A stretch of 64,000 nucleotides of DNA from Bauldia sp. (lineage in GTDB: Bacteria > Pseudomonadota > Alphaproteobacteria > Rhizobiales > Kaistiaceae). A program made the translations under genes and the position numbers. The stretch covers positions 125,058 to 189,057 of the forward strand of contig JAHCJY010000005.1 in the NCBI GenBank assembly GCA_026126065.1, in the 5' to 3' direction. The notes under the pieces were generated by a model that was not told where the DNA came from, searched no databases, and saw nothing but the letters and a program-made list of their open reading frames with translations. Positions 397 to 15,082 of the stretch are shown here, piece after piece; position 1 is the stretch's first letter; the number at the start of each line of letters is the position of its first letter.

Positions 397-503
397 CTCG
401 CTTCTCAGTACCCACTTCGTCGTAGGTATCGAACGCCGTCCCGGCACCGCATGCAAGGGTATATTCGTCTGGCTCCTCGCGCTGGATATCGTATCAGGAC
501 CGA

Positions 504-602
504 ATTCCAATGCAGCAGCAATGGACCAGGTCGTGACAATGGGCTGAAAGGGCCCCGCAACTCAGCAGCCCGCGCTTCGCCATCGCCCCGATGATGGACT
601 GG
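504..602 (+). repeat. Orphan dusA 5' fragment (attL-like copy)
   Basis: attccaatgcagcag...cccgcgcttcgccAtcgccccgatgatggactgg aligns with 13302-13410. This copy has a 12-nt deletion and a 1-nt insertion (GGGCTG vs GGCTG) that creates an early stop (MDQVVTMG*). Similarity stops abruptly after 602. Confidence 0.75.
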
Positions 603-802: not shown

Positions 803-963
803 ATTGAACCCTGCGCCTCCGCGCGTTGGCCGTAGGCGACCTGCGCCGCGGGCCAACTCTCGAGATCACCGGCTGTGCTTCTCGGCACAGCATCTCGAAG
901 TCGATCCTGAGAAGGATGCTTCGCCGACCACATGTCGGTGGCCTCCAACAAAGGAAAACAACG

Positions 964-1245
964 ATGACCCTCAAGATCAACAACCTCCTCCGCGTCTCGC
1001 TCATTGGCGCGCTCGCGGCCGCAACGGTCCCCGCGATCCCGACGATGGCCCTCGCGGCCGGCGATGCGGATTACTGCAATAGCGCCTTCTTTGCCGGCTA
1101 TGTTCGCGCCGCCGACGTCGGCGAGAAGTGCAATGGCACTCGCACGCACTTCGATGACCGAGATTGCGCCGCCGACGATCCGTTCGTGTTCGTCATCGCC
1201 GAACGCCGCAACGGCGTGGTCTATGTCGACTGCGTCTCTCACTAG
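964..1245 (+). CDS. Small secreted 4-Cys protein (island paralog P1)
   Basis: ATG at 964 is preceded by AAAGGAAAA. The Sec-type signal is MTLKINNLLRVSLIGALAAATVPAIPTMALAAG. The mature part has 4 Cys. It is a paralog of the protein at 11389-11721. Confidence 0.6.
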   Translation: MTLKINNLLRVSLIGALAAATVPAIPTMALAAGDADYCNSAFFAGYVRAADVGEKCNGTRTHFDDRDCAADDPFVFVIAERRNGVVYVDCVSH

Positions 1246-1326
1246 CTATGGAGTTACACTAGGTTGTCCATCCGGTCCTGACCGTGGAAGCTGGAGTTGC
1301 GAAGCTTCAGAACCTCGGAGGACCGG

Positions 1327-1498
1327 ATGAACATCTACAAGAATGCCCGTGACGCCGATTGGTCGAGAGCGTCTGGTTGTGGCTGTGCGGAGCGGGCAGA
1401 GCCCGGAGGCCGCCGCACCAGGCAAATTGGGGCAACGTCACGCTGATCCTTGTCGCGGATCGCGGATTCCATCATCGGTCGACCGCTACAAGCGCTGA
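1327..1498 (+). pseudogene. IS481-family transposase N-terminal (HTH) remnant, frameshifted and truncated
   Basis: GGAGG sits 5 nt before the ATG at 1327, which opens MNIYKNAR. Reading the adjacent frame from about 1351 (a 1-nt shift relative to the ATG frame) gives VTPIGRERLVVAVRSGQSPEAAA...VDRYKR*. This matches the canonical IS481 N-terminus (MN.HKNARLTP.GRE.lV..v..Gq.p.aAA....W..R). No DDE catalytic domain follows. Confidence 0.5.
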
Positions 1499-1565
1499 GT
1501 GCAATTCGCCGTGCTCCGCCACTGGCCCCGCCGTGATGCTGCGTTAGTAATCCACATCGCGCTGT

Positions 1566-4500
1566 CTATAGATTAACCTCATCCCGGACCTCGAATACTA
1601 CAGTGGGCGTGCTCACGTTTTTCAACTGGACTGGGCCAAGGCATTTCAGGTCCATTCCCTCTGGCAGCGTCTCCTTCGTCTGTTCTCCGACGAGAATCGC
1701 TCCGTCGCGTGCGTGGGCGGCGATCCGCGCCGCGACATTCACCGACGACCCAATTGCTGTGAACAGACGGCGGTCGACATCTTTCGCAGCGATCTTGTAG
1801 CAGCCGACGATCGCTTGGCCGGTGTTGACACCGATGTTGACAGTCACATTGCACGAATGGCGGCTGACGAGGTTCAGACGCCGCGTGGCGCGACGCAGCA
1901 AAAGCGCGGTCTTGACGGCGCGATGCGGGCTTTCGTCGCCATCGAAGATCGCGAGAAGGGAATCCCCTTCGATCTGACTTATCTCGCCTCCCATTTTGAG
2001 AATATCGTCGTAGAAGGCGGAGAAGTACTCCTCGACGAGACGCTTGGAGTTCGCCGCGCCGATGGACTCGACGATCAGCGTGTATCCTTGGATGTCGAGG
2101 AAGAGCGACGACACCACCGTCTCCCGCTGCTCCTCGATCTCCCTACCGCCGCCGTTGAGAAAGTCGTTGGCGTAGCGCTTGGTGGCAAAGGTTTCGAGCT
2201 GCTGCCGCAGATGCTCCATGAGTTGAAGCTTCTTTGCGGCGCGCCGGAGGGCGACCTGGTGACTGTCGAGGCTCTGGCCGGACCGCTGCCGCAGCAGGAC
2301 GTTGCCCAGCTCCGAAGTCGCCACGCGGAGGTCCCGCACGAGATCGTCAGACAGGTGTCCCGCCCTGGCGCTGGTGAGAAAGAGCAAGGCCCGGCCCCCT
2401 TCGCTGACGTGGCGGGCGCCGCAGTAGACCATCCCCCCGTGGGTAGCGTCGTCGCGGGCAAAGCGGGGATCGGCGGCTGTATCTGCGATCATCAGGTCGT
2501 GACCGGTGCGGCGGACGAGATCGATGATGTCGCCTCGGAGACCGCTGTGTTGTTGAATCCGAGACTCCTGGCCCACGCACATCGCCGATATCCCGTCGCG
2601 TGATTGCGCGATCACGGCCGGCTGCCCGTCGTCCACCCAGACGAGCCAGGCGGCGTCGGCGCCGGTCTCGTCTGCCACGGCCCGCAACAGCACCGGAATG
2701 CGCTCGGCCAGTTCGACGTCCTTGCCCAATGCGTGCTCGATGACGCCGGTCCGGTTGAGTTCCACGACTTTGCCAGGGGGCTCCAAGGACGCCGGCGCCT
2801 CCGCCAGGTCCGCCAGGGCCCGCTTCACCAGGGCGGTTGCCTTCCATGCCGCGAACCGCTTTCGTGCTTCTTCCAGATAGGCCGATCGTGACCGGGAGGA
2901 GCCCAGCTTCCTGGAGGCGTCGGCGGCGCGGAAGGCTGCGAGGCCGGCGATGTTCGGCATGCCGGCGCGATCGGCCGCTTCAATGGCGGCTTCGAACGCG
3001 CTTAGGGCGGTGCCATGGCCCCTGATCGCCATCGTCTCGGCCTCGAGAAGGAGGCGGTGTGGCTCGAAGTTTGCGGGGACCATGGCCGCGAGCCGGCGAA
3101 ACTTCTTGAGGCCCCGGTTGAGGAGCTTCAGCCTCCGGCCAAGCATGGCCGCCGCGATCGCGCGATAGAAGGCATAGTCCGCCAGCATGATCTGGCCCGG
3201 CATGGCATCGAGGTACCGGCTGGCCCGATCGCCGTAGCCAAGTGCCGCACCGGGTGACCCGAACAGGCATTCGAGTTGCAGCCTCATCACAAGATAGTAG
3301 CCGACGGCGGTGAGGTTGTTGCTCGCGAGCATCCGCTCGACGAATGCGTCGCCGGCCGCCGCCGATTTCATGATCGGCTCGCCGGGCTCGGCTTCGTCGC
3401 GCAGGAGACGGACTGCGCCTGACCACACGGCGTAGCTGCCGATCACAAATGGATCGCGGCTTTGGTTGATGAAATGAAGGCGCTTCCGGAAGTCCGATTG
3501 CAGAACCTCCAGGTCCTTCCCGCGAAAGAAGTTGAGGAACCACTGGAGCAGTATCCCATAGTAGGCGTACTGACGGTCACCGACCGCCACCGCGCCGTCG
3601 TATCCAATGCGGAGGAAGTTCAGGCACTCCGATATTGGACGCTGCCAGAGACCCACGAACGCCCCGTAGATGATCTGCACCTTCGGACGCGTCACCGGAT
3701 CCGGAAGCCGTTCGGCGAGCGCAAGTGCGAGCCGGCCGAGCGCGTCACCGCGGACGAAGGCGCCGAGCGCCACATGGCCGAGGCCGAACAGAACGTAGCC
3801 GGAAGGCGAGAGGGGCGAGTTGCCGGCGCGTGCCGAGATGGCGACGATCTTGAGGCCAGCGAGAATCGTGAGGTTGGGATTCACGAAGTAGGCCGCCGGG
3901 CTGACGCTGGTCAGTATCGTCAGCACCTTGAATAGGCGCTCGTCCTCCATCGTACGAAGCTCGACGTAGGATTCGACCGAGTGTCGTCGCATGAGCCAGC
4001 GGACGCGCAGGAATTCCACGATGATCCCTGCCCTCCGGATGGTCTTGTTGAACCGCCATCCGAGCTTGCCGAGCGCGACCACGGCCGCGTCGACCGCGTC
4101 GTTGTTCCTCTGCGCCGCGGTCTCCAGCAGGATCTTGGTGTTGTAGACGTCGGCGGCCTCGAGATCGCTATCGACATGGGTCATCAGGAGGTCGAACAGC
4201 CGCTGCGCGTCGTCGAACCGGCCGGAGAGATAAGCGGCGCCGAACGTCTCGAGGTGCAGCGCCACGCAAAGACGCCTGTCGGTCTTCCAGCTTTCCGGCG
4301 TGAGGAGCCTGGTTCCGGCGCTGAGTTTCAGGAACGCTTCCTCGAACGCCAGGGTCTCGCGAGCCCTGCGGCCGGCCGCGAGATTCAGTTCCGCCAGCTT
4401 TGTCCTCTGGCGGTCCGAGAGGTCTTCGCTGATTCGGTTTATGTTGTTGACGACGACGAACAGGCTGCGCGACCCGATATCATCGAGCGTGTCGAGAAGG

Positions 4501-6497
4501 GCATGACCGATGTCGCGGCGGAGCTGCTGCGCCTCGGTGGGATCGATGAGGGACGTGGCTGCGCTCTGGACGCGATCGTGGGTGAACTGGATGCTGTCGA
4601 GGTCCTCCTCGCCGGGTCGCATGGCGGCCTGGATCGCACCTATGGCGAACGCCTCGTCGAGCGCCGCGCGGAACGCATCCGACGGCATGGCGGAAGCATG
4701 GGCAAGGAGCCGGCGCGGGAACGATGCCCCGAGGAAGGCTGCCGTGGCCAGCAGCCTGCGGCAGTCGTCGCTGAGTTCGGAAAGGCGTCGGGCCACGATG
4801 TTCGCGACGTCGGCGCCGGTATCCTGCGCCTCGATCGCGCCCAGGTCGCAACGCCATGAGCCAGTCGGAAAATCGTACCAGACTAGCCGCCGCGACAGGA
4901 GTGCCTCTACCACCTGGTGGACGTAGAAGGGGTTGCCGCCGGTCCTGTCGTGAAGGTAGGCGGCGAGTCCGGCCCGCTCTTCCTCCGACCTGCCTACTTG
5001 GTCGATGAGCTTTGAGACGCTGCCCGATCCGAGGCCGGCGAGGCCGACGTGACTGACAGGATGATGCCGCCCGAGCGCCGCTTCCGCCCGGCCGAGGGCG
5101 GCGAGATGCGCCGGATCGTTGTCACGAAAGGCTCCGACGAACAGGATTCCGGCGAGCGATGGATCTCCGAACAGCATCTCCACCAGGTCGAGCGTCGCCA
5201 GGTCGGCCCACTGCATGTCATCAAGGAAGATGCACAGCGGTCGATTCCGGTTGGCGAAGCCGCGAAGGAGACCGACAACGGCATCCTTGAACCGGTTGGT
5301 CTGCTGTTCGGGTCCGATTTCCGGAGGAAGGCCCTGGTTGCCCAGCAGCGTCCCGAACTCGGGCGCGAGCGCGCAGATCACACCCTCAAGGCCCCCAAGT
5401 TCCGCCCGCAGCCTGTCGACCGTGCGATGGCGGGACTGGGTCGGCTGGTTCGCCGCCCACCGCGCCAGGCTGCCCAGCGACTTCGTGAGGGAGGACAGCG
5501 GCTCTTCCATGGCAAACTGGTCGGACTTGCCGCCAACGAAGACGCCGCGGCCTTCGACCACGCTGCGTTCGAACTCCTGGACGAGGCGCGTCTTGCCGAC
5601 CCCGGGCGGCCCGGTAACGAAGGCTGTGGCAGCACTCCGGCGCGCGCTGCGCAGCGCCCGGCGCAGCGTGGCCAGTTCGTTGTCGCGTCCAATCAGGGTG
5701 GCGCCGAACGCGATCGCCGGCGCGCCGTCCTGCTGGCCGAGGACCTGGATGCTAGGCGGTCCACCCAACTCGAAATGCCGCAGGCATTGATGAAGGTCGG
5801 CAGCCACGCCCCTGGCCGTCGCGTAACGTCGCCGGCCCGGGAGGTCGGCGAGCCGATTGATCACCTCGGAAACAGTCTCGAGGCCCGCTCCGCCCGCCTC
5901 TGAAAGGTCGTTCGGATCAACCGGCAGGGAGACCCGGTTTCGCCCGGTGCAGGCCCAGAACAGGAATGCGCCGAGCCCGAACAGATCGGTGGAACGGCTC
6001 GGCACCCCCATCGGGCGAACTCGGAACTCGGGGGCCAGAAACTCCGCATCATCGAGGGCGGCGAACTCCTCCTGCTCGTCGGCCCGCAGAGGCGCGCCTT
6101 CCCGGAAGGGGTGCAACGGGAGAAGGGCAACCCTGTCGAGCGTGCGGTTGGCCCATACCGTGCCGGGTCCGATCCGTCCGTAGACCCAACCGTGGTCGTG
6201 AAGGACGGCGAGCCGCCGTGCGAGCGCGGCCGTCAGCCTCAGGGCATGGCCGACCGTCGTCTGGATCTGGGAGCCGAGCTCCAGCGCCGGACGGAACTCG
6301 TCGCTGCGGATGCTCCAGGGCTGTGTCGCATGCCTTGCGAACGGCACGAGCGTGTCGGCGAGATTACGCTGATCCGGAATCCACGGCCGGCTGCCCGGAG
6401 TCCACGTGGAGACGGCAATACTGTCGACCACGGACGGATCGACGCCCATATGTTCATCGGGCTCCTGTACCGACGCACTGGGTATTGAGGTACCCAT
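1566..6497 (-). CDS. Multidomain signalling protein: truncated pseudokinase, AAA_16/STAND ATPase, helical/TPR-like region, GAF, class III nucleotidyl cyclase
   Basis: 1643-aa ORF. Kinase C-lobe remnants are LHDHGWVYGRIGPGTVW (HRD lost), FLAPEF and STDLFGLGAFLFWACTG. Walker A is GPPGVGKT (aa 296-302) and Walker B is CIFLDDMQWAD (aa 422-431). The GAF domain spans about aa 1252-1405. The cyclase domain spans aa 1461-1643 with FLDIQGYT, IEGDSLLAIF and GSSVNVAARI. Confidence 0.85.
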   Translation of the reverse strand: MGTSIPSASVQEPDEHMGVDPSVVDSIAVSTWTPGSRPWIPDQRNLADTLVPFARHATQPWSIRSDEFRPALELGSQIQTTVGHALRLTAALARRLAVLHDHGWVYGRIGPGTVWANRTLDRVALLPLHPFREGAPLRADEQEEFAALDDAEFLAPEFRVRPMGVPSRSTDLFGLGAFLFWACTGRNRVSLPVDPNDLSEAGGAGLETVSEVINRLADLPGRRRYATARGVAADLHQCLRHFELGGPPSIQVLGQQDGAPAIAFGATLIGRDNELATLRRALRSARRSAATAFVTGPPGVGKTRLVQEFERSVVEGRGVFVGGKSDQFAMEEPLSSLTKSLGSLARWAANQPTQSRHRTVDRLRAELGGLEGVICALAPEFGTLLGNQGLPPEIGPEQQTNRFKDAVVGLLRGFANRNRPLCIFLDDMQWADLATLDLVEMLFGDPSLAGILFVGAFRDNDPAHLAALGRAEAALGRHHPVSHVGLAGLGSGSVSKLIDQVGRSEEERAGLAAYLHDRTGGNPFYVHQVVEALLSRRLVWYDFPTGSWRCDLGAIEAQDTGADVANIVARRLSELSDDCRRLLATAAFLGASFPRRLLAHASAMPSDAFRAALDEAFAIGAIQAAMRPGEEDLDSIQFTHDRVQSAATSLIDPTEAQQLRRDIGHALLDTLDDIGSRSLFVVVNNINRISEDLSDRQRTKLAELNLAAGRRARETLAFEEAFLKLSAGTRLLTPESWKTDRRLCVALHLETFGAAYLSGRFDDAQRLFDLLMTHVDSDLEAADVYNTKILLETAAQRNNDAVDAAVVALGKLGWRFNKTIRRAGIIVEFLRVRWLMRRHSVESYVELRTMEDERLFKVLTILTSVSPAAYFVNPNLTILAGLKIVAISARAGNSPLSPSGYVLFGLGHVALGAFVRGDALGRLALALAERLPDPVTRPKVQIIYGAFVGLWQRPISECLNFLRIGYDGAVAVGDRQYAYYGILLQWFLNFFRGKDLEVLQSDFRKRLHFINQSRDPFVIGSYAVWSGAVRLLRDEAEPGEPIMKSAAAGDAFVERMLASNNLTAVGYYLVMRLQLECLFGSPGAALGYGDRASRYLDAMPGQIMLADYAFYRAIAAAMLGRRLKLLNRGLKKFRRLAAMVPANFEPHRLLLEAETMAIRGHGTALSAFEAAIEAADRAGMPNIAGLAAFRAADASRKLGSSRSRSAYLEEARKRFAAWKATALVKRALADLAEAPASLEPPGKVVELNRTGVIEHALGKDVELAERIPVLLRAVADETGADAAWLVWVDDGQPAVIAQSRDGISAMCVGQESRIQQHSGLRGDIIDLVRRTGHDLMIADTAADPRFARDDATHGGMVYCGARHVSEGGRALLFLTSARAGHLSDDLVRDLRVATSELGNVLLRQRSGQSLDSHQVALRRAAKKLQLMEHLRQQLETFATKRYANDFLNGGGREIEEQRETVVSSLFLDIQGYTLIVESIGAANSKRLVEEYFSAFYDDILKMGGEISQIEGDSLLAIFDGDESPHRAVKTALLLRRATRRLNLVSRHSCNVTVNIGVNTGQAIVGCYKIAAKDVDRRLFTAIGSSVNVAARIAAHARDGAILVGEQTKETLPEGMDLKCLGPVQLKNVSTPTVVFEVRDEVNL

Positions 6498-6524
6498 CCA
6501 AGCCCTGCAACCAGCCGATCGAGC

Positions 6525-7388
6525 TCAAGGTCCAGGTTTTCTGGCACGAAGATGCGCGTAGAACCAGCCACCGGCCTGCAACGCGCGATACTGGAGCCGG
6601 GAGGACATGAGGTTCTCCCGCTGGACCTCGGTTCTAAGACCCAAAACACTGAGTAGGTTGTGCGCCGGCAGTCCGGCAAAAGTAAGGTTGTGTAGCAGAT
6701 ACAGTGATGGCTCGACATACTCAGTGACATCCATCACTGCGACGTCGTCGAGGCCCGCGGCTGCGGCGTGGGCGAGATGAGACACGCCGGAGTCGAGCCC
6801 CGGTATAGCCCAGCCGCGCAGCCACTCGGCGTTTGTCGATGTGTCGAGTTCGTCGGGCCACCGGTCCGGCAGCATGTACTCGGCCATCGCCAGTCTGCCG
6901 CCCGGCTTCAGAACGCGTGCGGCCTCGCGATAGAAGGCAGCTTTGTCAGGCGCATGGACCACGCTCTCGATCGCGATGACGGCATCGACGGATGCGGTCC
7001 TGAGCGGCATGGCGGTGTAGTCGCCAATGACGAAGCGAGCCCTCCGGCTGAGCCCGCGTTCGGCGGCCGATTGCCTCGCCAGGACCATCTGGCGGAAGTT
7101 GACGTTGAGGCCGACGACGCGTGCCTGACGTTCGCTTGCCAGCCACAGCGACGACCCGCCGAGACCGCAGCCGGCGTCCACCACCAGGCTCCCCTCGCTG
7201 ATCGCCGCCAGGTCCGCAATGCGCCGGCTCGTTGCGATCAATGCTTCCGAGTGACTACGGGCGCCGTCGCCGAAATAGCCGAAGTGCACCGCGGAGACGG
7301 ACTTGTTCGTCCAAGCCAGCCAATAGTCACCCACGGTACCGTTGTAGTACCGATTGACCGAGCCAAATTCGGGATCTTCGATCGTCAA
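6525..7388 (-). CDS. Class I SAM-dependent methyltransferase (sterol-C24 / gamma-tocopherol / sarcosine-dimethylglycine MT-like subfamily)
   Basis: 287 aa. N-terminal YYNGTVGDYW...VHFGYF is followed by motif I VVDAGCGLGGSS and post-I/II motifs (VVGLNV, VDAVIAIESVVH, LKPGGRL). The start is TTG at 7388, 9 nt after the upstream stop. Confidence 0.75.
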   Translation of the reverse strand: MTIEDPEFGSVNRYYNGTVGDYWLAWTNKSVSAVHFGYFGDGARSHSEALIATSRRIADLAAISEGSLVVDAGCGLGGSSLWLASERQARVVGLNVNFRQMVLARQSAAERGLSRRARFVIGDYTAMPLRTASVDAVIAIESVVHAPDKAAFYREAARVLKPGGRLAMAEYMLPDRWPDELDTSTNAEWLRGWAIPGLDSGVSHLAHAAAAGLDDVAVMDVTEYVEPSLYLLHNLTFAGLPAHNLLSVLGLRTEVQRENLMSSRLQYRALQAGGWFYAHLRARKPGP

Positions 7389-7397
7389 GGTGCTGCG

Positions 7398-9329
7398 CTA
7401 TTCTTTCTCGTCGACGCCAAGGTCCTGATCCACGTGCTTCCGCCGCGGCGGAAGCACGCGTTCCTCCCGCAGGAACCGGGCGACCTTCCTCCTGATGCGG
7501 TGGGCGATCGCGAAGACCGCCTCGGCGGGGTTGGCCATTCCACCAGATGCTGCCCACTCGTCGATGGCCTGCGGGAGATCGAAGACGAGTGATTCGTCGT
7601 GGGTGAAGACGCGAACGCGTTCCGGAGACGTCCCCACCCTGGCGAGGATCGCGTTGACGGCCCGGCGGGCCGCCTCGTTCGCGCCCTCCATGCAGGCGAG
7701 ATCGGTGTCGGTGCTGACATAGTCGGCGGCGAGGAACATGTTCTTGAGCCCGACATCGGCCTCGGGACGACTCTTCGCCGAGTTGACGGTATTGATGAAC
7801 AGCGGCTCGGCGTTGTCGAGCTTGATGGTAATCGCGGAAGCCGGAGGCATCGATTCTCCCAGGAACACGTCCTCCTTCGGAAGCTCGACCTTCAGGTCCT
7901 CGAATCTCTGGACGGCGATCGTGCTGCCGACGAAGCCACTGGCCACCAACGCCCGTAGTGCCCTCCAATCCACCTTGACGAACCAGTTCAGACTGGAATC
8001 GATCTCGTAGTCGACGATGTTGTCGGAGGCGAGAGCCGGGATGCCGGGCTGATGCCGCTGTAGCTGTGCGAGCACCTCCGCGACGAGATTGGAGGGCATC
8101 GCCTTCCGGGCCCGTCGTGGAGCATGATCGGAATCGCCGGGATGAATGAAGAAGTCCGAGATGATGACCGACACCACCTCCTTCACGCCGCTGGCGGCGT
8201 TGTATGTAGTCACAGGCCGGCGCCAGTAACGCGTGGGTGCGATCGATGTGAGCGCCCAGGCCGAGTTTATGTGGGCGACGTGACCCGGGAGAAGACCGAC
8301 CCGGCTCCGCGAATAGAACGAAATGCCAGCCATCCAGTTCACGCCGAGCGTGGCCTTATTCATCTTTGCCAAGGCCGGAAAACGCTCGATGCGATTGCGC
8401 GCAGACCAGGGGCCAACCAGCTTGCGCGCTACCTCGAGAGGCACGCACAGGAGGTAGTAGTCGGCCTTGATGGGCTCCTGCTCGTCGGGCGCGTCTTCCG
8501 GTGCATCGCCGAGACGCCACTTAACGCCGACGATCTCCTTGCCTCTCAACGTCAGCGCGACGGCCTGGACGTTCGGGCGGAACTTGACACCGATGGCGTC
8601 GCCGTCGGCCGTTTCCAGAAAAGCCTTCCACGGATCGATCCAGATCTCGCTGGTCGGTCCGGCGAGAATCCAGTCCATTCCCTTGCCGGACCAGAAATCG
8701 TCGAACATCCGGGCGAGGATGGTGACCACGGTCTTCGTGCTCGATGACTGCGCATCCATCGCGACGAAGTTTTGGGTAAGGCCGTCGACGATGGCGGTGC
8801 GGTAGGCCAGCGACATCCTGTCGGCCTCCATGAAGTCCCACCACGATTTGAGGTCGAGCTCCTCCCAACGCCGAAGCGCCGACGTCGAAAGCGCAATACC
8901 GATCTTGCGGGCCGCGAAGGCTGCTTCGCCCGGCCCAAGGCCAAGATCTGGATTGCTGAAGCCCGTCTGCAGGGCGCGGAACAATTCGTTCAGGGTCTTG
9001 GGCCGGCGGGTCGGAAAGCGAAACGGTTCCTTCTTGAGCCGCGACAGCGCGCCTTCCGGTACCTCGACAAGATCCTTCGCGACGCTTCCGTTGAGGCCCG
9101 GAATGCGCGCCATGGTGTCCCGGACATTCCGATAGAAGCTCGGGAAGAAGCGGAAGCCGTGCTCCGCCGGGAGGCCTTTGATCTTCTCCTTGTCGCTGCA
9201 ATAGCTCCGTGCCTTGCCGCCGAAGATCGTCCGTCGCTCGTAGACAGTGACGTCGAAGCCCCGCTCCCTGAGTTCGTGGGCAGCCGTCAGTCCGGCGATG
9301 CCACCACCAATGATCGCTACCGTCGTCAC
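7398..9329 (-). CDS. FAD-dependent oxidoreductase, amine-oxidase/phytoene-desaturase superfamily (paralog 2, about 643 aa)
   Basis: The GTG start at 9329 is preceded by AGGGGGAAGG. The dinucleotide-binding motif is VAIIGGGIAGLTAAHEL, the GG motif is FGGKARS, and the C-terminal FAD motif is FLAADYVSTDTDLACMEGANEAARRAVNAIL. The longer 718-aa ORF-track version would overlap the upstream gene. Confidence 0.75.
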   Translation of the reverse strand: MTTVAIIGGGIAGLTAAHELRERGFDVTVYERRTIFGGKARSYCSDKEKIKGLPAEHGFRFFPSFYRNVRDTMARIPGLNGSVAKDLVEVPEGALSRLKKEPFRFPTRRPKTLNELFRALQTGFSNPDLGLGPGEAAFAARKIGIALSTSALRRWEELDLKSWWDFMEADRMSLAYRTAIVDGLTQNFVAMDAQSSSTKTVVTILARMFDDFWSGKGMDWILAGPTSEIWIDPWKAFLETADGDAIGVKFRPNVQAVALTLRGKEIVGVKWRLGDAPEDAPDEQEPIKADYYLLCVPLEVARKLVGPWSARNRIERFPALAKMNKATLGVNWMAGISFYSRSRVGLLPGHVAHINSAWALTSIAPTRYWRRPVTTYNAASGVKEVVSVIISDFFIHPGDSDHAPRRARKAMPSNLVAEVLAQLQRHQPGIPALASDNIVDYEIDSSLNWFVKVDWRALRALVASGFVGSTIAVQRFEDLKVELPKEDVFLGESMPPASAITIKLDNAEPLFINTVNSAKSRPEADVGLKNMFLAADYVSTDTDLACMEGANEAARRAVNAILARVGTSPERVRVFTHDESLVFDLPQAIDEWAASGGMANPAEAVFAIAHRIRRKVARFLREERVLPPRRKHVDQDLGVDEKE

Positions 9330-9363
9330 GCCTTCCCCCTTTCCCGCCGGAGCGGACGGGCAG

Positions 9364-11190
9364 CTACGGCCCGGGTTTCCTGCGGTTGTTTCGCCGCGCG
9401 GCGAAGCGCCGGACGACGCCGGCGGGTATGCTTCCCGGCGATGGGAAGTTGCGCTGGAACAGCCACCGGTCGATCGACCGCGCGGGTGCGAAAACCGACG
9501 GCTCCGGGTAGGACCAGACTGAACAGGGGCGACGGTCCGGAGCCGCGAGGGCAAGGATGGCGTTCACCGCCCTCCGGCCCGCCTCGTTGGCGCCCTCCAT
9601 GGTCGCGAGGTCGGCGTTCGTCCGCACATAGTCGGCCGCCAGGAACGCGTTCTTGATGCCGACGTTCGTGCGTGGCCTGAGCTTCCAGGAGCCCACAGTG
9701 TTGATGAACAGCGGCGCGGCGTTGCCGGCTATCCGGACCAGGCGCGGATCGTCGTCGAGAAACTGCTCGACGAAGGCGGCGGGCGACACGAGTTGGCCAA
9801 GCAGTTCGGCCCTGCCGGGCGTGAAGTCCAGATCGGGATCGAGCTGGAAGTCGATCAGCGAATCGTCGAGATTTGGCCGCCCGGCAATATGGTCCTGAAG
9901 CTGCCTGAGAGCTTCAACCTTTATTTCCTCGGCGCTGTCCGCGTGCTTTGCCGCGTCATCTCCGCCGGCGTGGAAATTCGAGATGATGACCGACAGCACC
10001 TCACGAACGGCGCTATCCTTGAGAGCATACTTCTTCAGACTTGCCTGCCAGTGGCGGGTTTGGGCTATCGACGTGAGGGCCCACGACGAATCGAGAAACG
10101 CCGCGTGGTTGGCTAGAGTCGGTACCTCTTCACGAAGATAAAGGATCAGCCCAGACATCCAGCTTACCTTCAGTCCGATCTCGGGATCAATACAGTTATC
10201 GAGAACCGGCTTTAGTGCGGGATGCTGGCCAACAATCTCCTGGTTCTTCTCGAGAACCCCTGCCATCACTTCTACCGGAAGCGCGAACACGAAGTAGTCG
10301 GCTTCGATGAGACCACCTCCGGGCTCCTGCATGGGCATCTCGCAGTCGCGCTCGGACACGATCCAGTCGACGCTGACGACGCTTTTCGTGACCGGATCAT
10401 AGTTGATGGTCCCTGCAGCACACCCGCAGTTGAACAACACCTTCCGACGGCCGCGCTCGGGTTCGTCCCGGCTCAAGTAGTCGACCCACGGCTGGATCCA
10501 GACATCGCTCGTCGGGCCGTTGAGTATCCGGTCCATGCCGTCCTCGGACCAGAAGTCACGAAGAAGACGGGCGAGGATATTGATAACGGTCTTGGTGCTC
10601 GAGTGATCGGCGTCCATCGCCACGAAATTCTGCGTAAGGCCGTCGACGATGACGGCCCGGTAGGCCGGCGACATCATGTCGGCCTCCATGTATTTCGCCC
10701 AGGGCATGTCCTCGAGTTCATGCAGACGGCGTTCGTCGCTCATGGACAGGGCCGCCACCAACTTCGTCGTCGCAAAGGCGATCTCAGTTGCAGTCAGTCC
10801 GAGACCCGGATTGCTGAACATCTTGCGGATCATCCCGAGCGCTTCGCTGATGCCGCGAGGACTGCGGGTCGGGACGCGGAAGGGCGAACTGCCGATGCGG
10901 GAAAGGATGGCCTCTGGCACGGGGACCAGGTCAGCCAGCACGCTCCCGTGGCGGCCCGGAATCCGTGACAGAGTATCGTTCAGGTGTTGGTAGAAGCTCG
11001 GGAAGAACCGGAAGCCGTGCTCGGCTGGAAGGCCCGCCACGGTGGCCTTTTCGGAGGGGAAGCTTCGCGCCTTGCCACCTAAGACACGGCGCTTCTCCCA
11101 GACGGTGACCTTGAATCCGCGCTCCCGCAACTCGTGGGCCGCGGTCAGGCCGGCGACACCACCGCCGATAACGGCAACAGTCTTGGTCAT
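9364..11190 (-). CDS. FAD-dependent oxidoreductase, amine-oxidase/phytoene-desaturase superfamily (paralog 1, 608 aa)
   Basis: MTKTVAVIGGGVAGLTAAHELRERGF...LGGKARS...EHGFRFFPSFY...FLAADYVRTNADLATMEGANEAGRRAVNAIL. It is collinear with the protein at 7398-9329, with 55/76 identical residues over the N-terminal block counted by hand. ATG at 11190 follows a G10 tract, and an in-frame upstream ATG at 11244 is also possible. Confidence 0.75.
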   Translation of the reverse strand: MTKTVAVIGGGVAGLTAAHELRERGFKVTVWEKRRVLGGKARSFPSEKATVAGLPAEHGFRFFPSFYQHLNDTLSRIPGRHGSVLADLVPVPEAILSRIGSSPFRVPTRSPRGISEALGMIRKMFSNPGLGLTATEIAFATTKLVAALSMSDERRLHELEDMPWAKYMEADMMSPAYRAVIVDGLTQNFVAMDADHSSTKTVINILARLLRDFWSEDGMDRILNGPTSDVWIQPWVDYLSRDEPERGRRKVLFNCGCAAGTINYDPVTKSVVSVDWIVSERDCEMPMQEPGGGLIEADYFVFALPVEVMAGVLEKNQEIVGQHPALKPVLDNCIDPEIGLKVSWMSGLILYLREEVPTLANHAAFLDSSWALTSIAQTRHWQASLKKYALKDSAVREVLSVIISNFHAGGDDAAKHADSAEEIKVEALRQLQDHIAGRPNLDDSLIDFQLDPDLDFTPGRAELLGQLVSPAAFVEQFLDDDPRLVRIAGNAAPLFINTVGSWKLRPRTNVGIKNAFLAADYVRTNADLATMEGANEAGRRAVNAILALAAPDRRPCSVWSYPEPSVFAPARSIDRWLFQRNFPSPGSIPAGVVRRFAARRNNRRKPGP

Positions 11191-11193
11191 GCT

Positions 11194-11203
11194 CCCCCCC
11201 CCC
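11194..11203 (-). repeat. Homopolymeric G10 tract (C10 on the plus strand) at the 5' end of the first oxidoreductase gene
   Basis: The minus strand reads CCC GGGGGGGGGG AGC ATG. The tract lies 3 nt upstream of ATG 11190 and in frame inside the alternative ORF starting at 11244. Confidence 0.9.
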
Positions 11204-11388
11204 GGGTCGCTGCTAGCATTGGATGCAGGACGACATCGTGTCAACTGAACCGCGCATTACGCGTCTGCTGAACGTGAAGTCGCCATGTTTTTGCCTGCAG
11301 AGGGAACACCTTGAAAGACGAGCACCGCGAGTGCGCTATCGCGATGCTTCTTGCCATCTGGGGCGGTACTTACTGCTATCCAGGGTAG

Positions 11389-11721
11389 CTACGCGCACCC
11401 GAAGTAGAACACCCCGCCCCGCAGTTCCGCGCGGGCCCGGCGGTGGGAGACGCCGTCCGCGCCGCAGTCGGTCCGCTGCGCGGTCGCACCAGTGCGGGTC
11501 CAGCAGATCCATTCGAACTCGCCGCTGTGATCCACACGTACGTAGCCGTCGAAGAATGTATCCCGGCCGGGCGCCAGGACGTTGCCCTGGAACTCGACGC
11601 TTTCGCAGCGCTCGAAGGTCTGGCCGGCGGCGAGCGCGGTGGCAGGAACGCCCGGGCCGGCCGCGAGAGCGAGGGCGCCGATCATCGCAACGCGAAGAAG
11701 GGGATTGCTGGTCAACCTCAT
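11389..11721 (-). CDS. Small secreted 4-Cys protein (island paralog P2)
   Basis: 110 aa. The signal peptide MRLTSNPLLRVAMIGALALAAGPGVPATALAAG shares 17/26 positions with P1 over LLRV..IGALA...ALAAG. The mature part shares the C(N/E)S..F.G and DC.AD...G.V.Y..C patterns. Confidence 0.6.
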   Translation of the reverse strand: MRLTSNPLLRVAMIGALALAAGPGVPATALAAGQTFERCESVEFQGNVLAPGRDTFFDGYVRVDHSGEFEWICWTRTGATAQRTDCGADGVSHRRARAELRGGVFYFGCA

Positions 11722-11734
11722 TGTCGTGTGCCTT

Positions 11735-11762
11735 TGTGAGTGGTCACCGATCTCATGATCGG
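11735..11762. promoter_or_regulatory. Two adjacent inverted repeats in the divergent P2/crp-like intergenic region (candidate operator)
   Basis: TGTGAgtggTCAC lies at 11735-11747 (a CRP-like half-site, but with a 4-nt spacer). CCGATCtcatGATCGG lies at 11747-11762 (perfect 6-bp arms). Confidence 0.25.
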
Positions 11763-11882
11763 AGTTCCATCCTCCACAGGCGGCCTGCGCTATGATGTGC
11801 TGCGCGGCACGGCCGGATACATGGGGAGAACGACGGGACTGTCGCGATCGGGGGCAAGGGGCCGCGGGCAAGGGGGGACATC

Positions 11883-12566
11883 TTGGAAGCAAGTCTTGAG
11901 GTTGCTTCGCGCCTACTGGGAAGCTGCGTCCTGTTCCGCGATCTCGAAGTGGCCGATATCGCCGAACTCGCCGGGCAGGCGTCGCTGCGTCGCTACTCCG
12001 CCGGAGAGACAATCTTCCACATGGGCGATCCCGGCGAGAGCATGATGGGCATCGTGGCGGGGACAGTGCGCGTGGCACGAATTACGGCCCAGGGCGATGA
12101 ACTCGTCCTTGCGGATTTCGGGGCTGGCGACGTGTTCGGCGAGATCGCACTCCTTGACGGCCGGGGGCGTTCCGCAACCGCGAGTGCGGTCACCAACTGC
12201 ACGCTGGTCTACCTCTCCCGGACGGAGTTTCTGACATTCCTCGGGAGCCGGCCTGACGTTGCCGCATCGATCATCAGGCTCCTGTGCGGCAAGCTCCGAA
12301 CGGCGGATGACCGCTCGTCGGATCTCATCTTCCTCAGCCTCGGCGGTCGTTTGGCGAAGGCCCTTCTGGCGCGTGCGGTAACCTCCCCCGCCCACCCCGG
12401 AGGGCGGGTCTCCCTGAGCCAGTCGGAGCTCGCGACGATGATCGGCGCCACACGATCCAACGTGAACCGGCAGCTCAAGGCGTGGGAGCGCGCCGGCATC
12501 GTGGCGATGACCCGTGGCTGGATCGTGGTTCTGGACCGCGGCGCCCTGGCGGCGGAGGTCGACTAA
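11883..12566 (+). CDS. Crp/Fnr family transcriptional regulator (cNMP-binding domain plus C-terminal HTH)
   Basis: 227 aa. The phosphate-binding cassette is FGEIALLDGRGRSATASA (aa 85-100). The HTH is LSQSELATMIGATRSNVNRQLKAWERAGIV. The TTG start is preceded by AAGGGGGGA. Confidence 0.85.
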   Translation: MEASLEVASRLLGSCVLFRDLEVADIAELAGQASLRRYSAGETIFHMGDPGESMMGIVAGTVRVARITAQGDELVLADFGAGDVFGEIALLDGRGRSATASAVTNCTLVYLSRTEFLTFLGSRPDVAASIIRLLCGKLRTADDRSSDLIFLSLGGRLAKALLARAVTSPAHPGGRVSLSQSELATMIGATRSNVNRQLKAWERAGIVAMTRGWIVVLDRGALAAEVD

Positions 12567-12706
12567 CCGTCCGGTCAGCCAGACCATCGGCCGCACCAGA
12601 TAGTTCGTCGCGACGGCTCCGGCGCGCGCGTCGCCGAGCACGGTCCCTTCCGCCTCGTCCTTGAGGCAACGCCGGTCAACCCGCGCGCCAGAGATTGTCG
12701 GACCAG

Positions 12707-13003
12707 CTAGTAGACGTTGTAGGCAACGGTCGGATAGCCGAGGCCGCCCGGGCGGGTGTTCGAGACGCAGTTGCGCTCGGCGTCGGTGCGGCCGACGCGC
12801 GGCGCGAAGGTCAGATAGACGCCGAGGCTGTCGGGCGAACTCGGCCCCGGCCGTTCGCCCTCGAGCATCATGGCAAGACGGGCGCCGAGGGCATTCGCCG
12901 ATTTCGTCGGAGATGGCGACGCGGCAAGCGAAGCGTGCCTGCTATTGCAGGTCGGAAGGCCACAGGCATTGACGATCGTGAGGATAAACGTGCTGTGCTT
13001 CAA
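12707..13003 (-). CDS. Putative small lipoprotein (possible third, diverged member of the island Cys-protein family)
   Basis: From TTG at 13003 the translation is [14 protein letters not shown]|GLPTCNS...DAERNCVSN...VAYNVY, with a lipobox-like VNAC. Third-position GC is very high over the last ~60 codons. CNS and D.ERNC echo P1/P2 motifs. The ORF-track entry 12707-13240 fuses it in frame to the integrase stub. Confidence 0.35.
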
Positions 13004-13089
13004 TCGGCGAGTGGTTTCACCTTCACCACTTGGCGGGACGGTCCGAATCGGTTCGGTCCGACCCTCTACGGTATTGTCTACCGCGGCGT

Positions 13090-13240
13090 CTGGCCTCGCG
13101 CCGCGGTCGAGCTTGTGCCCTTGCCCGCGCGCCCAGGCGACCGCATCTTTGTGGTCTGCAAAGGTCCTGAATACCTTTGGCTGTGTCGAACGCCGGACTT
13201 GGGCCTGCCAACTCGATCTGCGGCGAACGATCGGCGCCAC
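13090..13240 (-). pseudogene. Tyrosine integrase N-terminal stub (about 50 codons)
   Basis: [47 protein letters not shown] matches the common integrase N-terminal pattern (W/Y-RAQVRRKG...SKTF.T...A..WAR..E..mdRG). Third-position GC is lower than in neighbouring genes. No core-binding or catalytic domain follows in any frame. Confidence 0.5.
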
Positions 13241-13301
13241 TGGGCTTCCTCTGCAGCAGTTTCGCAGCAGTGAGAGCCGCGAAAGACGGTATCACGACTG
13301 T

Positions 13302-13410
13302 ATTCCAATGCAGCAGAACTGCAGCAGCAATGGACCAAGCCGCGAAAATGGCTGAAAAACCCGCGCAATTCCGACGCCCGCGCTTCGCCGTCGCCCCGAT
13401 GATGGACTGG
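13302..13410 (+). repeat. dusA 5' segment, functional copy (attR-like)
   Basis: Direct repeat of 504-602 (see that entry). It contains the dusA start codon and the codons for RFAVAPMMDW. Confidence 0.75.
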
Positions 13411-14355
13411 ACGGACCGGCATTGCCGCGTCTTCCATCGCCGGCTGACGCGCAGTGCACTCCTCTACACCGAGATGGTGACGGCGGAGGCGATCCTCCGT
13501 GGCGACCGCGAGCGGCTCCTCGGCTTCAGCCCCGAGGAGCAGCCGGTGGCGCTCCAGCTCGGCGGCTCGGACCCGGTGCGGCTCGCCGAGGCGGCGCGGA
13601 TCGGGGAGGGGTTTGGCTATGCCGAGATCAATCTCAATGTCGGCTGCCCGTCGGATCGCGTGAAGTCGGGGGATTTCGGCGCCTGCCTGATGCTGCGGCC
13701 GGAACTCGTCGGTGACTGCGTGGCCGCGATGAAGTCCGCCGTGACCATCCCGGTGACGGTGAAATGCCGGCTTGGCGTGGACGAGCAGGACACCGAGACC
13801 GCGCTCGACGCGCTGGCCGATGCGGTGCTTGCCTCCGGCGCCGATGGTATCTGGGTGCACGCGCGGAAGGCCTGGCTGCAAGGCCTCAGCCCCAAGGAAA
13901 ACCGCACCGTCCCGCCGCTCGACTACGGCCGCGTCCGCCGCCTCAAGGAGCGGCTGCCGCACGTATTCGTCGGAATCAATGGCGGTATCCCCGACATCGA
14001 CGCCGCGGAAGCGGAGCTTGCCCATGTCGACGGCGTCATGCTCGGCCGTGCCGCGTATGAGCGGCCCGGCGTGCTTGCGGAGGTCGACCGCCGCCTCTTC
14101 GGCGCGACGGAGCCTGACCCCGATCCGGTCGCCGTCGCGCGCGCGATGATCCCGTATGTCGACGCCCTCGTGGCTGTCGGACGGCCAGCCAACCGGGCGA
14201 CCCGGCACATGCTCGGCCTCTTCCACGGCCGGCCGGGGGCGCGGGCGTGGCGCCGGGTGATGACGCTCGGCCCGACACGACCCGGAGCGGCCGGCGCCGT
14301 GATCGAGGACGCACTGGCGGCGATGGCCCGTGAGGGCGAGCGCCTCGCCGCCTGA
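13348..14355 (+). CDS. dusA: tRNA-dihydrouridine(20/20a) synthase DusA
   Basis: MAEKPAQFRRPRFAVAPMMDWTDRHCRVFHRRLT...EINLNVGCPSDRV...VTVKCRLG are hallmark DusA motifs. An alternative in-frame ATG lies at 13330. Confidence 0.9.
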   Translation: MAEKPAQFRRPRFAVAPMMDWTDRHCRVFHRRLTRSALLYTEMVTAEAILRGDRERLLGFSPEEQPVALQLGGSDPVRLAEAARIGEGFGYAEINLNVGCPSDRVKSGDFGACLMLRPELVGDCVAAMKSAVTIPVTVKCRLGVDEQDTETALDALADAVLASGADGIWVHARKAWLQGLSPKENRTVPPLDYGRVRRLKERLPHVFVGINGGIPDIDAAEAELAHVDGVMLGRAAYERPGVLAEVDRRLFGATEPDPDPVAVARAMIPYVDALVAVGRPANRATRHMLGLFHGRPGARAWRRVMTLGPTRPGAAGAVIEDALAAMAREGERLAA

Positions 14356-14358
14356 GGC

Positions 14359-15018
14359 CTAGTTCGCGCGCTTGGTCGGCCTCGCCGGGCCGGTGTCGAC
14401 CGGGTAGTCGACGATCCGCACTAGGTCGATCTCGCCATTGTAGGTCGGGTCGACCTCGAACGTGACGAGCACGAACTGGCCGTTCCGGAACTGCCAGGTG
14501 CCGATGCTCGACGCATCGCAGAGGCCGCGCCAGCACGCATTCTCGGTCACCGTCCGCGTCGCGAGGTCGAAGGTCGCGTTGACCAGCTGGTTCTCGGTGG
14601 TCATCCCGGTGATCGGGATGGCGTTGACCGTGATGCAGTCGAGGTTCTCGAAGCCGCCCATGCGGCAGTCGGGTTCGAAGGTCGGGATCGCGAAGGCGAC
14701 CGGCTGGACGCCGTTGTACTCGTCCCACGACAGGAACATGTCGAACCGGTTGTAGGCGCCCGAGCCGCAGTAGAACTTGTACAGACGGTATTCGACATCC
14801 GTCGCGCCCTCGAAATCCTGGCGATAGGTGAGGTCGAATATCTCCGGGACTCCGATCGGCTCGGGGCCGCCGAAGCACGCTGTCTCCGAGAGCACGGCGA
14901 AAGCGGCGATGACCTGGTCGTCGATCGCGTCGGCCCGCACGGGGCCGGTCGCGAGGAGGCCGGCGAGTGCGGCTGTCCACGCCGCGGTGCTGAATCTGCG
15001 CAAACGTTCGGCGATCAT
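14359..15018 (-). CDS. Secreted hypothetical protein (DUF1176-like, tentative)
   Basis: ATG at 15018 is preceded by GGAGGAGG. The signal peptide is MIAERLRRFSTAAWTAALAGLLATGPVRA. The protein has several Cys and the motif CGSGAYN. Confidence 0.45.
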   Translation of the reverse strand: MIAERLRRFSTAAWTAALAGLLATGPVRADAIDDQVIAAFAVLSETACFGGPEPIGVPEIFDLTYRQDFEGATDVEYRLYKFYCGSGAYNRFDMFLSWDEYNGVQPVAFAIPTFEPDCRMGGFENLDCITVNAIPITGMTTENQLVNATFDLATRTVTENACWRGLCDASSIGTWQFRNGQFVLVTFEVDPTYNGEIDLVRIVDYPVDTGPARPTKRAN

Positions 15019-15082
15019 CGGAGCCTCCTCCAGTGCAACCACGCGCCAGTGATAGCCGGGCGACCGTCCGGCCGCCAAGCGG

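Follow-up and report, generated by a model that had tools for sequence, protein, structure and literature searches.

We analyzed a 64,000-nucleotide stretch from the genome of a soil alphaproteobacterium, Bauldia sp. (assembly GCA_026126065.1, contig JAHCJY010000005.1, positions 125,058 to 189,057 of the forward strand), hereafter the window, and found that it carries a minus-strand operon encoding two paralogous flavin adenine dinucleotide (FAD) enzymes, FP1 and FP2, a small-molecule S-adenosylmethionine (SAM) methyltransferase (MT), and a large sensor protein in which a STAND ATPase is joined to a class III nucleotide cyclase. We infer, with a probability of about 0.5, that this cassette is a horizontally mobile, self-contained module that tailors a long-chain lipophilic compound, most probably a polyprenyl-derived lipid, under the control of its own cyclic-nucleotide arm. 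The genes of the operon, in order of transcription, are as follows.

9364-11190, minus strand: FP1, 608 aa, an FAD enzyme from an uncharacterised family that resembles phytoene desaturases; the operon's leading enzyme gene
7398-9329, minus strand: FP2, a 643-aa paralogue of FP1, about 47% identical to it; GTG start; NCBI protein P0006 likewise has 643 aa
6525-7388, minus strand: MT, a 287-aa class I SAM enzyme of a natural-product/tocopherol-MT-like clade
1566-6497, minus strand: sensor, 1643 aa, with a pseudokinase, an AAA_16 STAND ATPase, a helical region, a GAF-like region, and a class III nucleotide cyclase

Operon layout and constraint

An earlier reading of the letters without database searches (the sequence-only reading) had proposed that these four packed genes form one operon. 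ORF (open reading frame) calling and translation reproduced the co-directional run, its coordinates, and its gaps of 34 nt (FP1/FP2), 9 nt (FP2/MT), and 27 nt (MT/sensor). Purifying selection was detected on all four genes relative to the closest relative, locus L001 (dN/dS 0.12-0.21, or 0.12-0.23 once a small upstream gene is counted with the operon's four), and by this measure the ORFs of the operon are real genes under constraint. FP1, FP2, and MT are each 100% identical to NCBI proteins from a Bauldia sp. metagenome-assembled genome (MAG; Hyphomicrobiales). The GC content of the whole window is 67.5%; regional GC is lower in the cassette, as is GC at third codon positions (about 0.8 or lower vs about 0.82-0.92 across most of the remaining window). 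Synonymous divergence between the window and L001 is 0.85 for FP1, 0.76 for FP2, 0.43 for MT, 0.30 for the sensor, and 0.24 for the small upstream gene SP2, and the intergenic DNA of the cassette is 92% identical. By these values the cassette is a mosaic, in which the flavoenzyme pair seems to have been exchanged with a more distant relative.

FP1 and FP2 are FAD enzymes related to phytoene desaturase

The Pfam domains Amino_oxidase and NAD_binding_8 were found in FP1 and FP2 alike, which bears out their first description as two paralogous FAD oxidoreductases. Both contain the FAD dinucleotide motif, and both keep all the positions that are invariant in a 55-member family alignment. Their top NCBIfam matches were HpnE, zeta-carotene desaturase (ZDS), and phytoene desaturase (PDS), at 34-70 bits, which lies under every curated equivalog score (569 bits for PDS TIGR02731, 622 for ZDS TIGR02732, and 283 for HpnE TIGR03467). 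The AlphaFold (AF2) model of FP1 was confident (pLDDT 88, pTM 0.91), and its top fold match in the PDB was rice phytoene desaturase (5MOG; E 2e-21, target TM 0.81), with amine oxidases at about 0.65. Sequence identity to PDS is 16%. When the family profile was compared with solved proteins, PDS alone (residues 19-311) aligned past the first 50-90 or so residues, that is, past the FAD-binding motif. A dinucleotide-binding motif, an amine-oxidase-type FAD fold, and a PDS-like substrate domain were thus all present. By these profiles and models, FP1 and FP2 are FAD enzymes, and their nearest characterised relative is plant-type phytoene desaturase.

The family is large, with 636 representative clusters (50% identity, E<=1e-30), many of which have fusion architectures of 800-1350 aa. 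Its members are typically about 540 aa long, and the matched PDS chains have 466-472 residues. FP1 and FP2 had been called giant, about twice the typical size; at about 1.1-1.3 times the size of their relatives, they do not deserve the term. The FP1/FP2 duplication is lineage-specific, and a separate, independent duplication was found elsewhere in the family. The neighborhoods of stand-alone members of about 540 aa in Bradymonas and Paludibaculum yielded no pathway clue, and a search of plasmids with FP1 returned distant members only, none of them beside the full trio of flavoenzyme, MT, and sensor. Among the plasmids with a family member (35-37% identity) were haloarchaeal megaplasmids, including NC_013747.1 (Haloterrigena turkmenica) and NZ_CP063207.1 (Haloferax gibbonsii); the H. 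turkmenica gene adjoins a second FAD-dependent oxidoreductase and an HTH protein.

The methyltransferase

MT matched Pfam Methyltransf_11, Methyltransf_25, and Methyltransf_31 as well as CMAS (47 bits, with a threshold of 27) and was placed in a tocopherol-MT-like clade, as expected of the small-molecule SAM methyltransferase it had been taken for. It attained no NCBIfam equivalog cut-off: it scored 29-62 bits against the cyclopropane fatty acid (CFA) synthase models (cut-offs 400-650) and 43.5 bits against geranyl diphosphate (GPP) 2-C-methyltransferase NF041943 (cut-off 400). Homologs at 45-50% identity are common and are labeled 'tocopherol O-methyltransferase' or 'CFA-synthase-like' by JGI. 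In the AF2 model (pLDDT 90.5), the nearest folds were AtmM, RebM, MitM, and SpnF, followed by TleD, BezA, and the GPP and farnesyl diphosphate (FPP) C-methyltransferases. Enzymes that add methyl groups to prenyl double bonds are frequent in the MT clade, several prenyl C-methyltransferases among them, and the fold itself leaves the substrate of MT unfixed.

The sensor is a STAND protein with a cyclase output

The domains of the sensor, all encoded on the minus strand, are listed below from the N-terminus.

5721-6293, minus strand: degenerate kinase C-lobe (aa 69-259); hhalign to the kinase domains of relatives, probability 98.8%, E 1e-16
5136-5696, minus strand: AAA_16 STAND NTPase domain (aa 268-454); Pfam E 5e-29, with Walker A GPPGVGKT and Walker B IFLDD read from the translation
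2334-2696, minus strand: GAF-like region (aa about 1268-1388); GAF_2 E 0.016, sub-threshold
1617-2132, minus strand: class III cyclase catalytic domain (aa 1456-1627); Pfam Guanylate_cyc E 6.5e-13

The N-terminus gave no Pfam kinase match, even at E<=1, and the kinase homology was recovered by hhalign over the C-lobe only, with no N-lobe aligning. Its catalytic loop reads YGRIGPGT in place of the HKDLKPxN consensus, the Asp, Lys, and Asn being replaced. The set expected of an active Ser/Thr kinase (Gly-rich loop, VAIK Lys, HRD Asp, and DFG) was not found in this altered, C-lobe-only remnant, in agreement with its initial designation as a pseudokinase. The AAA_16 P-loop domain, with its Walker A and B motifs and the helical region that follows, has the features of a STAND NTPase. 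TPR repeats went undetected in the window sensor, and relatives do have TPR matches. For the GAF domain that had been proposed, the match in the window protein is sub-threshold, and the orthologs have significant GAF matches between their AAA_16 and cyclase domains. The sensor falls short of the curated score of the TOMM kinase/cyclase fusion model (TIGR03903), at 93 bits against a cut-off of 705.75, and the match was limited to the AAA region (residues 267-673).

With AAA_16 and Guanylate_cyc both matched by Pfam, the view of this 1643-aa protein as a sensor with a class III cyclase output held up. In an alignment of 13 sensor cyclase domains, the window cyclase retains both metal-binding Asp residues and the transition-state Asn and Arg (FLD…, …EGD…, …VNVAAR); its catalytic set is intact, making it competent at the sequence level. 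In the same alignment, a Gln occupies the adenine-specifying Lys position, which is variable among relatives, and neither of the canonical specificity pairs, Lys/Asp for ATP or Glu/Cys for GTP, was found in the window cyclase. The STAND cyclase Rv0386 is likewise reported to have a Gln at that position.

The cassette recurs in other genomes

A lack of co-conservation would have counted against the cassette as a unit. This is not the case, as flavoenzyme, MT, and STAND/cyclase sensor occur together in no fewer than 12 independent loci, most of them from uncultured carriers, and this trio is conserved down to about 35% identity for the flavoenzyme and 30% for the sensor. All five close relatives of FP1 whose contigs were inspected (5/5) adjoin the same MT and the same sensor type. 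Representative loci are given below.

L001: four-gene order identical to that of the window, plus crp and the small genes SP1 and SP2
L002: crp upstream; FP2 and sensor fragmented
Two JGI contigs: MT, sensor, FP, FP, FadL/TodX-family channel
L003/L004: MT and sensor, divergent from a single FP; insertion sequence (IS) elements adjoining
L005: MT, split sensor, FP, protein binding cyclic nucleoside monophosphates (cNMPs)
L088: FP, OmpW, MT, sensor, transposase, Crp (found from MT)
L089 (also found from MT): non-orthologous version, MT with a cyclase–AAA_16–TPR protein; separate ADC-like gene and distinct PDS-like flavoprotein downstream
L175 (also found from MT): non-orthologous version, MT with a cyclase–AAA_16–TPR protein, an ADC–flavoprotein fusion, and a GAF–sigma54 activator

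Unbiased scans added the trio loci L008, L096, L103, L108, and L127, in which FP is 36-39%, the sensor about 30%, and MT 43-48% identical to the window proteins. Because the trio persists at such identities, the gene combination is kept well beyond what synteny by descent alone would give. In L103, L108, L127, and the JGI contigs, the sensor gene sits between MT and FP within the operon. Outer-membrane channels for hydrophobic compounds lie inside two of the cassettes (OmpW in L088 and the FadL/TodX-family channel in the JGI contigs). The scans of genome contigs and metagenome contigs listed mostly distant family members (<=40% identity); the counts given hereafter hold among the matches listed, and the frequency of the exact four-gene cassette is not inferable from them.

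Isoprenoid genes in the wider flavoenzyme family

A Pyr4-like transmembrane terpene cyclase (PF25129) is encoded directly downstream of the flavoenzyme in at least 17 loci, including L051 (3363-3962), L023, L025, L029, L034, L133, and L154, and every named genome among them belongs to the Bacteroidota. Ruegeria, Streptomyces, Acaryochloris, Chthonomonadaceae, and L098 each encode a polyprenyl synthetase no more than about 500 nt from the flavoenzyme. At L087 (10001-12970), the flavoenzyme (Amino_oxidase 12-513) and a polyprenyl synthetase (polyprenyl_synt 678-920) are joined in one ORF of 989 aa. Because of these three independent contexts (terpene cyclase, polyprenyl synthetase, and fusion), together with the PDS-like fold, a polyprenyl-derived substrate is our best guess, and a lipid or isoprenoid, one of the substrate classes originally suggested for the flavoenzymes and MT, fits them best. 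No phytoene or squalene synthase was noticed in the cassette gene lists, for which no dedicated search was run.

Other members of the family are fused to ADC (P0062 and L175), DUF6989 (L070), or DUF5995 (L079). In L015, a 1313-aa ORF ends in a long C-terminal stretch without assignment; we suspect this extension to be a second flavoenzyme-like module.

A distinct cassette of cyclase–AAA_16–TPR protein, DUF3237, Linocin_M18 (family 1) encapsulin shell, flavoenzyme, and polyprenyl synthetase was observed at L171 (Ruegeria sp. THAF33 plasmid, 2035-10199), L013 (4632-13066), L059 (4340-12888), and L087 (459-12970), its hosts being Alphaproteobacteria, a cyanobacterium, and Armatimonadota. This arrangement suggests encapsulated terpenoid chemistry linked to a STAND cyclase.

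STAND signalling proteins are recurrent partners of the flavoenzyme

Among the matches listed, the broad flavoenzyme family spans many bacterial phyla and one archaeal MAG. An AAA_16 signalling protein was encoded within 6 kb of the flavoenzyme in 16/80 genome loci and a class III cyclase in 10/80, and a signalling gene lay less than 350 nt away in 9/80. Across 160 unbiased family loci, the density per 100 kb fell from 3.9 within 1 kb of FP to 0.33 at 6-10 kb for cyclase domains, from 3.2 to 0.5 for AAA_16, and from 1.8 to 0.17 for MT. About a fifth of the family members listed adjoin STAND signalling proteins with cyclase, histidine-kinase, or PP2C outputs. These partners are kinase–AAA_16–TPR–GAF–HisKA/HATPase proteins in Paenibacillus (P. 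ginsengihumi, L084, has a kinase–STAND–GAF–histidine kinase) and Abditibacterium, a kinase–AAA_16–GAF–PP2C protein in Microcoleus, and (zinc ribbon–)cyclase–AAA_16–TPR proteins in Margulisiibacteriota, Flavobacteriales, Rubrivivax, Aquabacterium, Acaryochloris, and Chthonomonadaceae. In Aquabacterium humicola RJY3 (L062), crp, cyclase-STAND, and FP stand in an orderly array. STAND signalling proteins thus occur beside the flavoenzyme family again and again, irrespective of the output domain they carry.

Two other neighborhoods were observed. In Paenibacillus provencensis (L037, 12203-13006), a class-3 lipase and a 420-aa protein without a family match lie between the flavoenzyme and a kinase–STAND–GAF–histidine kinase. 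In Actinomycetota, genes for an EAL-domain protein and a homolog of ECF-type sigma factors cluster near the flavoenzyme (L074, 11478-15141, Ilumatobacteraceae; also the Solirubrobacteraceae loci L021, L039, L043, L048, L052, L066, and L077), which is a further signalling association of the family.

The island and the flanking genes

The cassette is enclosed by the following features.

491-602, plus strand: remnant of the dusA 5' end, displaced, marking the island's far boundary; direct repeat of 13289-13410, 82-85% identical
964-1245, plus strand: SP1, 93-aa paralogue of SP2 (40% identical), convergent with the sensor gene; no family match
11389-11721, minus strand: SP2, 110 aa, Cys-containing, its N-terminus resembling a signal peptide; same orientation as the operon, 198 nt upstream of FP1; no family match
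11883-12566, plus strand: Crp/Fnr-family regulator with cNMP_binding and HTH_Crp_2 domains (Pfam E 8e-25 and 4e-16), divergent from the operon
12719-12898, minus strand: C-terminal fragment of eutC (ethanolamine ammonia-lyase light chain), gene debris between crp and dusA; 60 residues only, Pfam EutC E 1e-19, NCBIfam E 4e-21
13289-13410, plus strand: dusA 5' end joined to an intact dusA (ORF 13177-14355, Dus domain E 3e-79), near boundary of the island

Islands specific to dusA replace the 5' end of this gene and leave the original 5' end at their far boundary (PMC4482086). The window shows this arrangement, namely an insertion in the dusA 5' end with imperfect direct repeats, spaced 12.8 kb apart. 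The associated tyrosine integrase was not found in the island with Pfam, NCBIfam, or tblastn against plasmids. The eutC fragment is the C-terminal part of ORF 12707-13240 (minus strand), the first ~50 residues of which had been read as integrase-like; this candidate was dropped, as neither Pfam, NCBIfam, nor tblastn confirmed it. With no integrase detectable and a eutC fragment inside it, the island is decayed. On this sequence evidence the cassette lies on a decayed 12.8-kb dusA-5'-end island, and what had been described as a mobile-element scar can now be named more precisely, with the direct repeat as its support and a verifiable integrase still missing. Horizontal transfer of the cassette, another early proposal, is likely in view of the dusA island here and of the IS elements and transposases that adjoin other copies.

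The other neighbors that had been singled out were also recognized. The protein encoded at 11883-12566 combines cNMP_binding and HTH_Crp_2 domains and is, as was first supposed, a cNMP-receptor regulator adjoining the cassette. Crp homologs also adjoin it in L001, L002, and L088; L005 has a stand-alone cNMP-binding protein and L175 a GAF-sigma54 activator. SP1 and SP2 are indeed Cys-containing proteins with signal-peptide-like N-termini, as expected of secreted proteins; they flank the cassette in inverted orientation and are both retained in L001, with SP2 at the same position and 89% identical, and were not found in more distant cassettes. Just past dusA (14359-15811, minus strand), the window encodes two proteins unrelated to the cassette, one of them DUF1176-like and the other a retropepsin-type aspartyl protease (gag-asp_proteas, E 2e-23) whose N-terminus is hydrophobic.

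A proposed mechanism and its alternatives

In the mechanism that we propose, the dead kinase lobe would serve as a scaffold only, and a ligand would switch the STAND sensor on through its helical/GAF part; this ligand would probably be either the lipid substrate itself or some product or stress cue connected with that substrate. The activated sensor would make cAMP, although the non-canonical Gln could also permit another cNMP, and the Crp-type regulator would bind the cNMP and raise transcription of the operon. FP1 and FP2 may then insert double bonds in successive steps, as the paralogues PDS and ZDS do in carotenoid synthesis, and MT may methylate the substrate or the product. Because the window cassette has no prenyl synthase, the substrate would be drawn from the host pool or from outside. 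Control of the enzymes by a cNMP is plausible.

Several observations weigh against this mechanism. On its regulatory side, the nucleotide product of the cyclase, cAMP or another cNMP, cannot be predicted from the sequence, and the Crp neighbor is absent at L003, L008, L096, L103, L108, and L127. Crp (TGTGA-N6-TCACA) and Clr (TGTT-N8-AACA) boxes occur at or below chance, with none in the upstream regions of the operon, and a scan of positions 900-12700 for sigma-70 promoters and intrinsic terminators performed no better than on shuffled sequences; footprinting against L001 was uninformative, the intergenic DNA being nearly the same. On the chemical side, the window cassette and its closest relatives contain no isoprenoid-pathway gene, the isoprenoid link coming from distant members (<=40% identity); the top fold matches of MT are sugar or aziridine O-/N-methyltransferases, and its CMAS match would fit a fatty-acyl substrate equally. 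Finally, the sensor gene is placed inside the operon, between the enzymes, in several loci, and the FP family also pairs with STAND proteins of histidine kinase or PP2C output, which fits an enzyme that feeds a sensor at least as well.

The last two points lead to a tentative alternative, to which we give about half the weight of the proposed mechanism: the flavoenzyme(s) and MT would make or process a lipophilic ligand or chromophore that is bound by the STAND/GAF sensor, or the enzyme itself would report its substrate flux to the sensor through protein contact, and the output would be exchangeable. Such a logic resembles that of the heme oxygenase BphO, which feeds bacteriophytochrome, or of MalY and Aes, which modulate the STAND regulator MalT. 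All that the STAND neighbors of FP share is the AAA_16–helical(–GAF) core, whereas their outputs may be a cyclase, HisKA/HATPase, or SpoIIE-PP2C and their N-terminus a kinase or a zinc ribbon plus cyclase. Such pairs span Alphaproteobacteria, Paenibacillus, Cyanobacteria, Abditibacteriota, Margulisiibacteriota, Bacteroidota, and Betaproteobacteria. The close spacing in 9/80 of the genome loci listed and the predicted co-transcription of the sensor between MT and FP (L103, L108, L127, and the JGI contigs) also point this way, and a polyene desaturase would be a natural source of a conjugated chromophore. However, about 80% of the family members listed have no signalling neighbor, so that the enzyme also has a role independent of such partners; no GAF domain is present in the cyclase-AAA_16-TPR partners; and the divergent Crp and the sigma54 activator near some cassettes suggest transcriptional control of the enzymes. 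Somewhat less likely still is a more specific idea, in which the FP family (together with MT at the loci that have it) would produce a conjugated or methylated isoprenoid, and this product would be the ligand or chromophore of a STAND–GAF/TPR receptor class not recognised before.

The tailoring mechanism could also operate, with the same regulatory logic, on the fatty-acyl chains of membrane lipids, by analogy with furan fatty-acid synthesis as a stress-lipid pathway; we consider this doubtful. It would account for the CMAS score of MT and the JGI label of its homologs, for the FadL/TodX-family and OmpW channels inside two cassettes, for the class-3 lipase between FP and sensor in Paenibacillus L037, for the ADC-family proteins fused to or adjoining FP, and for a faint similarity of many family members to MCRA, a fatty-acid hydratase; moreover, UfaD of the furan pathway has been described as phytoene-dehydrogenase-like (PMC7380195). 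Yet a UfaO/DUF1365-type partner is absent from the cassettes looked at, MT has 287 aa compared with roughly 400 aa for CFA synthase and attains none of the CFA-synthase equivalog cut-offs, the top structural match of FP1 is PDS and not a fatty-acid enzyme, and the family is fused to or adjoins polyprenyl synthetases and terpene cyclases. These same isoprenoid ties, and the mostly chromosomal, stand-alone occurrence of the family, also count against the very improbable reading of the cassette as an anti-phage or conflict system, in which STAND would sense infection, the cyclase would make a Pycsar-like cNMP alarm, and the flavoenzymes and MT would be effectors. In favor of this phage-responsive option, which the sequence-only reading had raised, are a STAND ATPase carried on a mobile island, IS elements and transposases beside other copies, and FP genes that differ more from their L001 counterparts than the other cassette genes do. 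PADLOC did return weak matches, in which the cyclase hit PycC (best E 8.5e-15) and the cNMP domain of Crp hit Pycsar effectors, but these are domain-level only and no system model fits. The cNMP receptor carries HTH_Crp_2 and is a DNA-binding regulator rather than a toxic effector, the dN/dS of the FP genes (0.17-0.21) gives no sign of diversifying selection, and FAD, flavin, or amine-oxidase components are unmentioned in the eLife survey of NTPase conflict systems.

Significance and comparison with known systems

Because their ligands are unknown, STAND/TPR-type cyclases and kinase–STAND hybrids are largely of unknown function, and a conserved enzyme partner provides a concrete handle on them. 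The cassette also marks out a branch of the phytoene-desaturase superfamily that is large, uncharacterised, and tied to polyprenyl synthetases, membrane terpene cyclases, and sometimes encapsulins. This points toward a bacterial chemistry of terpenoids or lipids that is still unexplored, carried on mobile DNA and controlled by second messengers. If the enzymes' product were the ligand of the sensor, lipid-hormone-like or light/redox-sensing systems with interchangeable cyclase, histidine-kinase, or PP2C outputs would exist across many phyla, and in some lineages synthesis would be enclosed in an encapsulin shell.

The cassette had been put forward as apparently undescribed, and this assessment stands: no description of a system with this composition was found in the literature searched on COG3349, on the three Pfam domains together, on PDS-like enzymes combined with STAND and cyclase proteins, and on Pyr4-like cyclases of bacteria, and none of the closest known systems shares its composition. 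PDS, ZDS, and HpnE have in common with FP1 and FP2 the FAD-binding amine-oxidase fold, rice PDS being the top structural match and all three the top NCBIfam matches. PDS and ZDS form a sequential paralogous pair, which the side-by-side FP1 and FP2 recall. In contrast to these enzymes, the cassette flavoproteins score far under the family cut-offs and have extra insertions and C-terminal helices, and the PDS/ZDS/HpnE pathways lack the MT and STAND/cyclase sensor partners. Rv0386-type STAND cyclases (cyclase–ATPase–TPR–LuxR) and kinase–AAA_16–TPR–GAF hybrids share with the sensor the AAA_16 core, the helical repeats, and the class III cyclase, and FP-family neighbors show the exact cyclase–AAA_16–TPR order; in the window sensor, by contrast, the cyclase comes last, behind a GAF-like domain, the N-terminal kinase lobe is dead, and a domain for binding DNA is absent.

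In the furan fatty-acid pathway of Rhodobacter sphaeroides, the SAM methylase UfaM and the phytoene-desaturase-like FAD enzyme UfaD methylate and then desaturate vaccenate (PMC7380195). The cassette is predicted to share with this stress-regulated UfaM/UfaD/UfaO pathway the successive action of two enzymes, a SAM methylase and an FAD enzyme of PDS-like type, on a lipid chain, but its MT is of another size and subfamily, its flavoenzyme family links to isoprenoid genes, and its control would run through a cyclase and Crp rather than sigma-E/ChrR. Neither a UfaO (RSP1090-type) partner nor a CFA-synthase-type methylase was found in the cassettes looked at. Clusters of the 2-methylisoborneol type and of Family 2B encapsulins bring together genes for terpenoid enzymes, for a SAM C-methyltransferase, and for a protein that binds cNMPs (PMC8346489, PMC11550324). 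The MT fold is near those of the GPP and FPP C-methyltransferases, a gene for a cNMP-binding protein (the Crp-family gene at 11883-12566) likewise stands beside the biosynthetic genes, and flavoenzyme relatives sit in encapsulin operons with polyprenyl synthetases. Unlike these clusters, the window cassette has no terpene cyclase or encapsulin, its MT falls below the GPP-methyltransferase cut-off, it encodes its own cNMP source in the STAND cyclase, and its receptor is a Crp-type regulator. Pycsar systems pair a PycC cyclase with a cNMP-binding effector that carries a transmembrane or TIR killing domain, in place of which the cNMP-binding protein here has HTH_Crp_2. With the dusA-specific islands (PMC4482086), the element shares the insertion in the dusA 5' end, the imperfect direct repeat, and the displaced remnant at the far boundary; it differs in its small size (12.8 kb), its eutC debris, and the loss of any recognisable integrase. 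Set against all of these, we infer that the cassette is a second-messenger-coupled lipid or terpenoid tailoring cluster, of a composition that is its own among the closest known systems.

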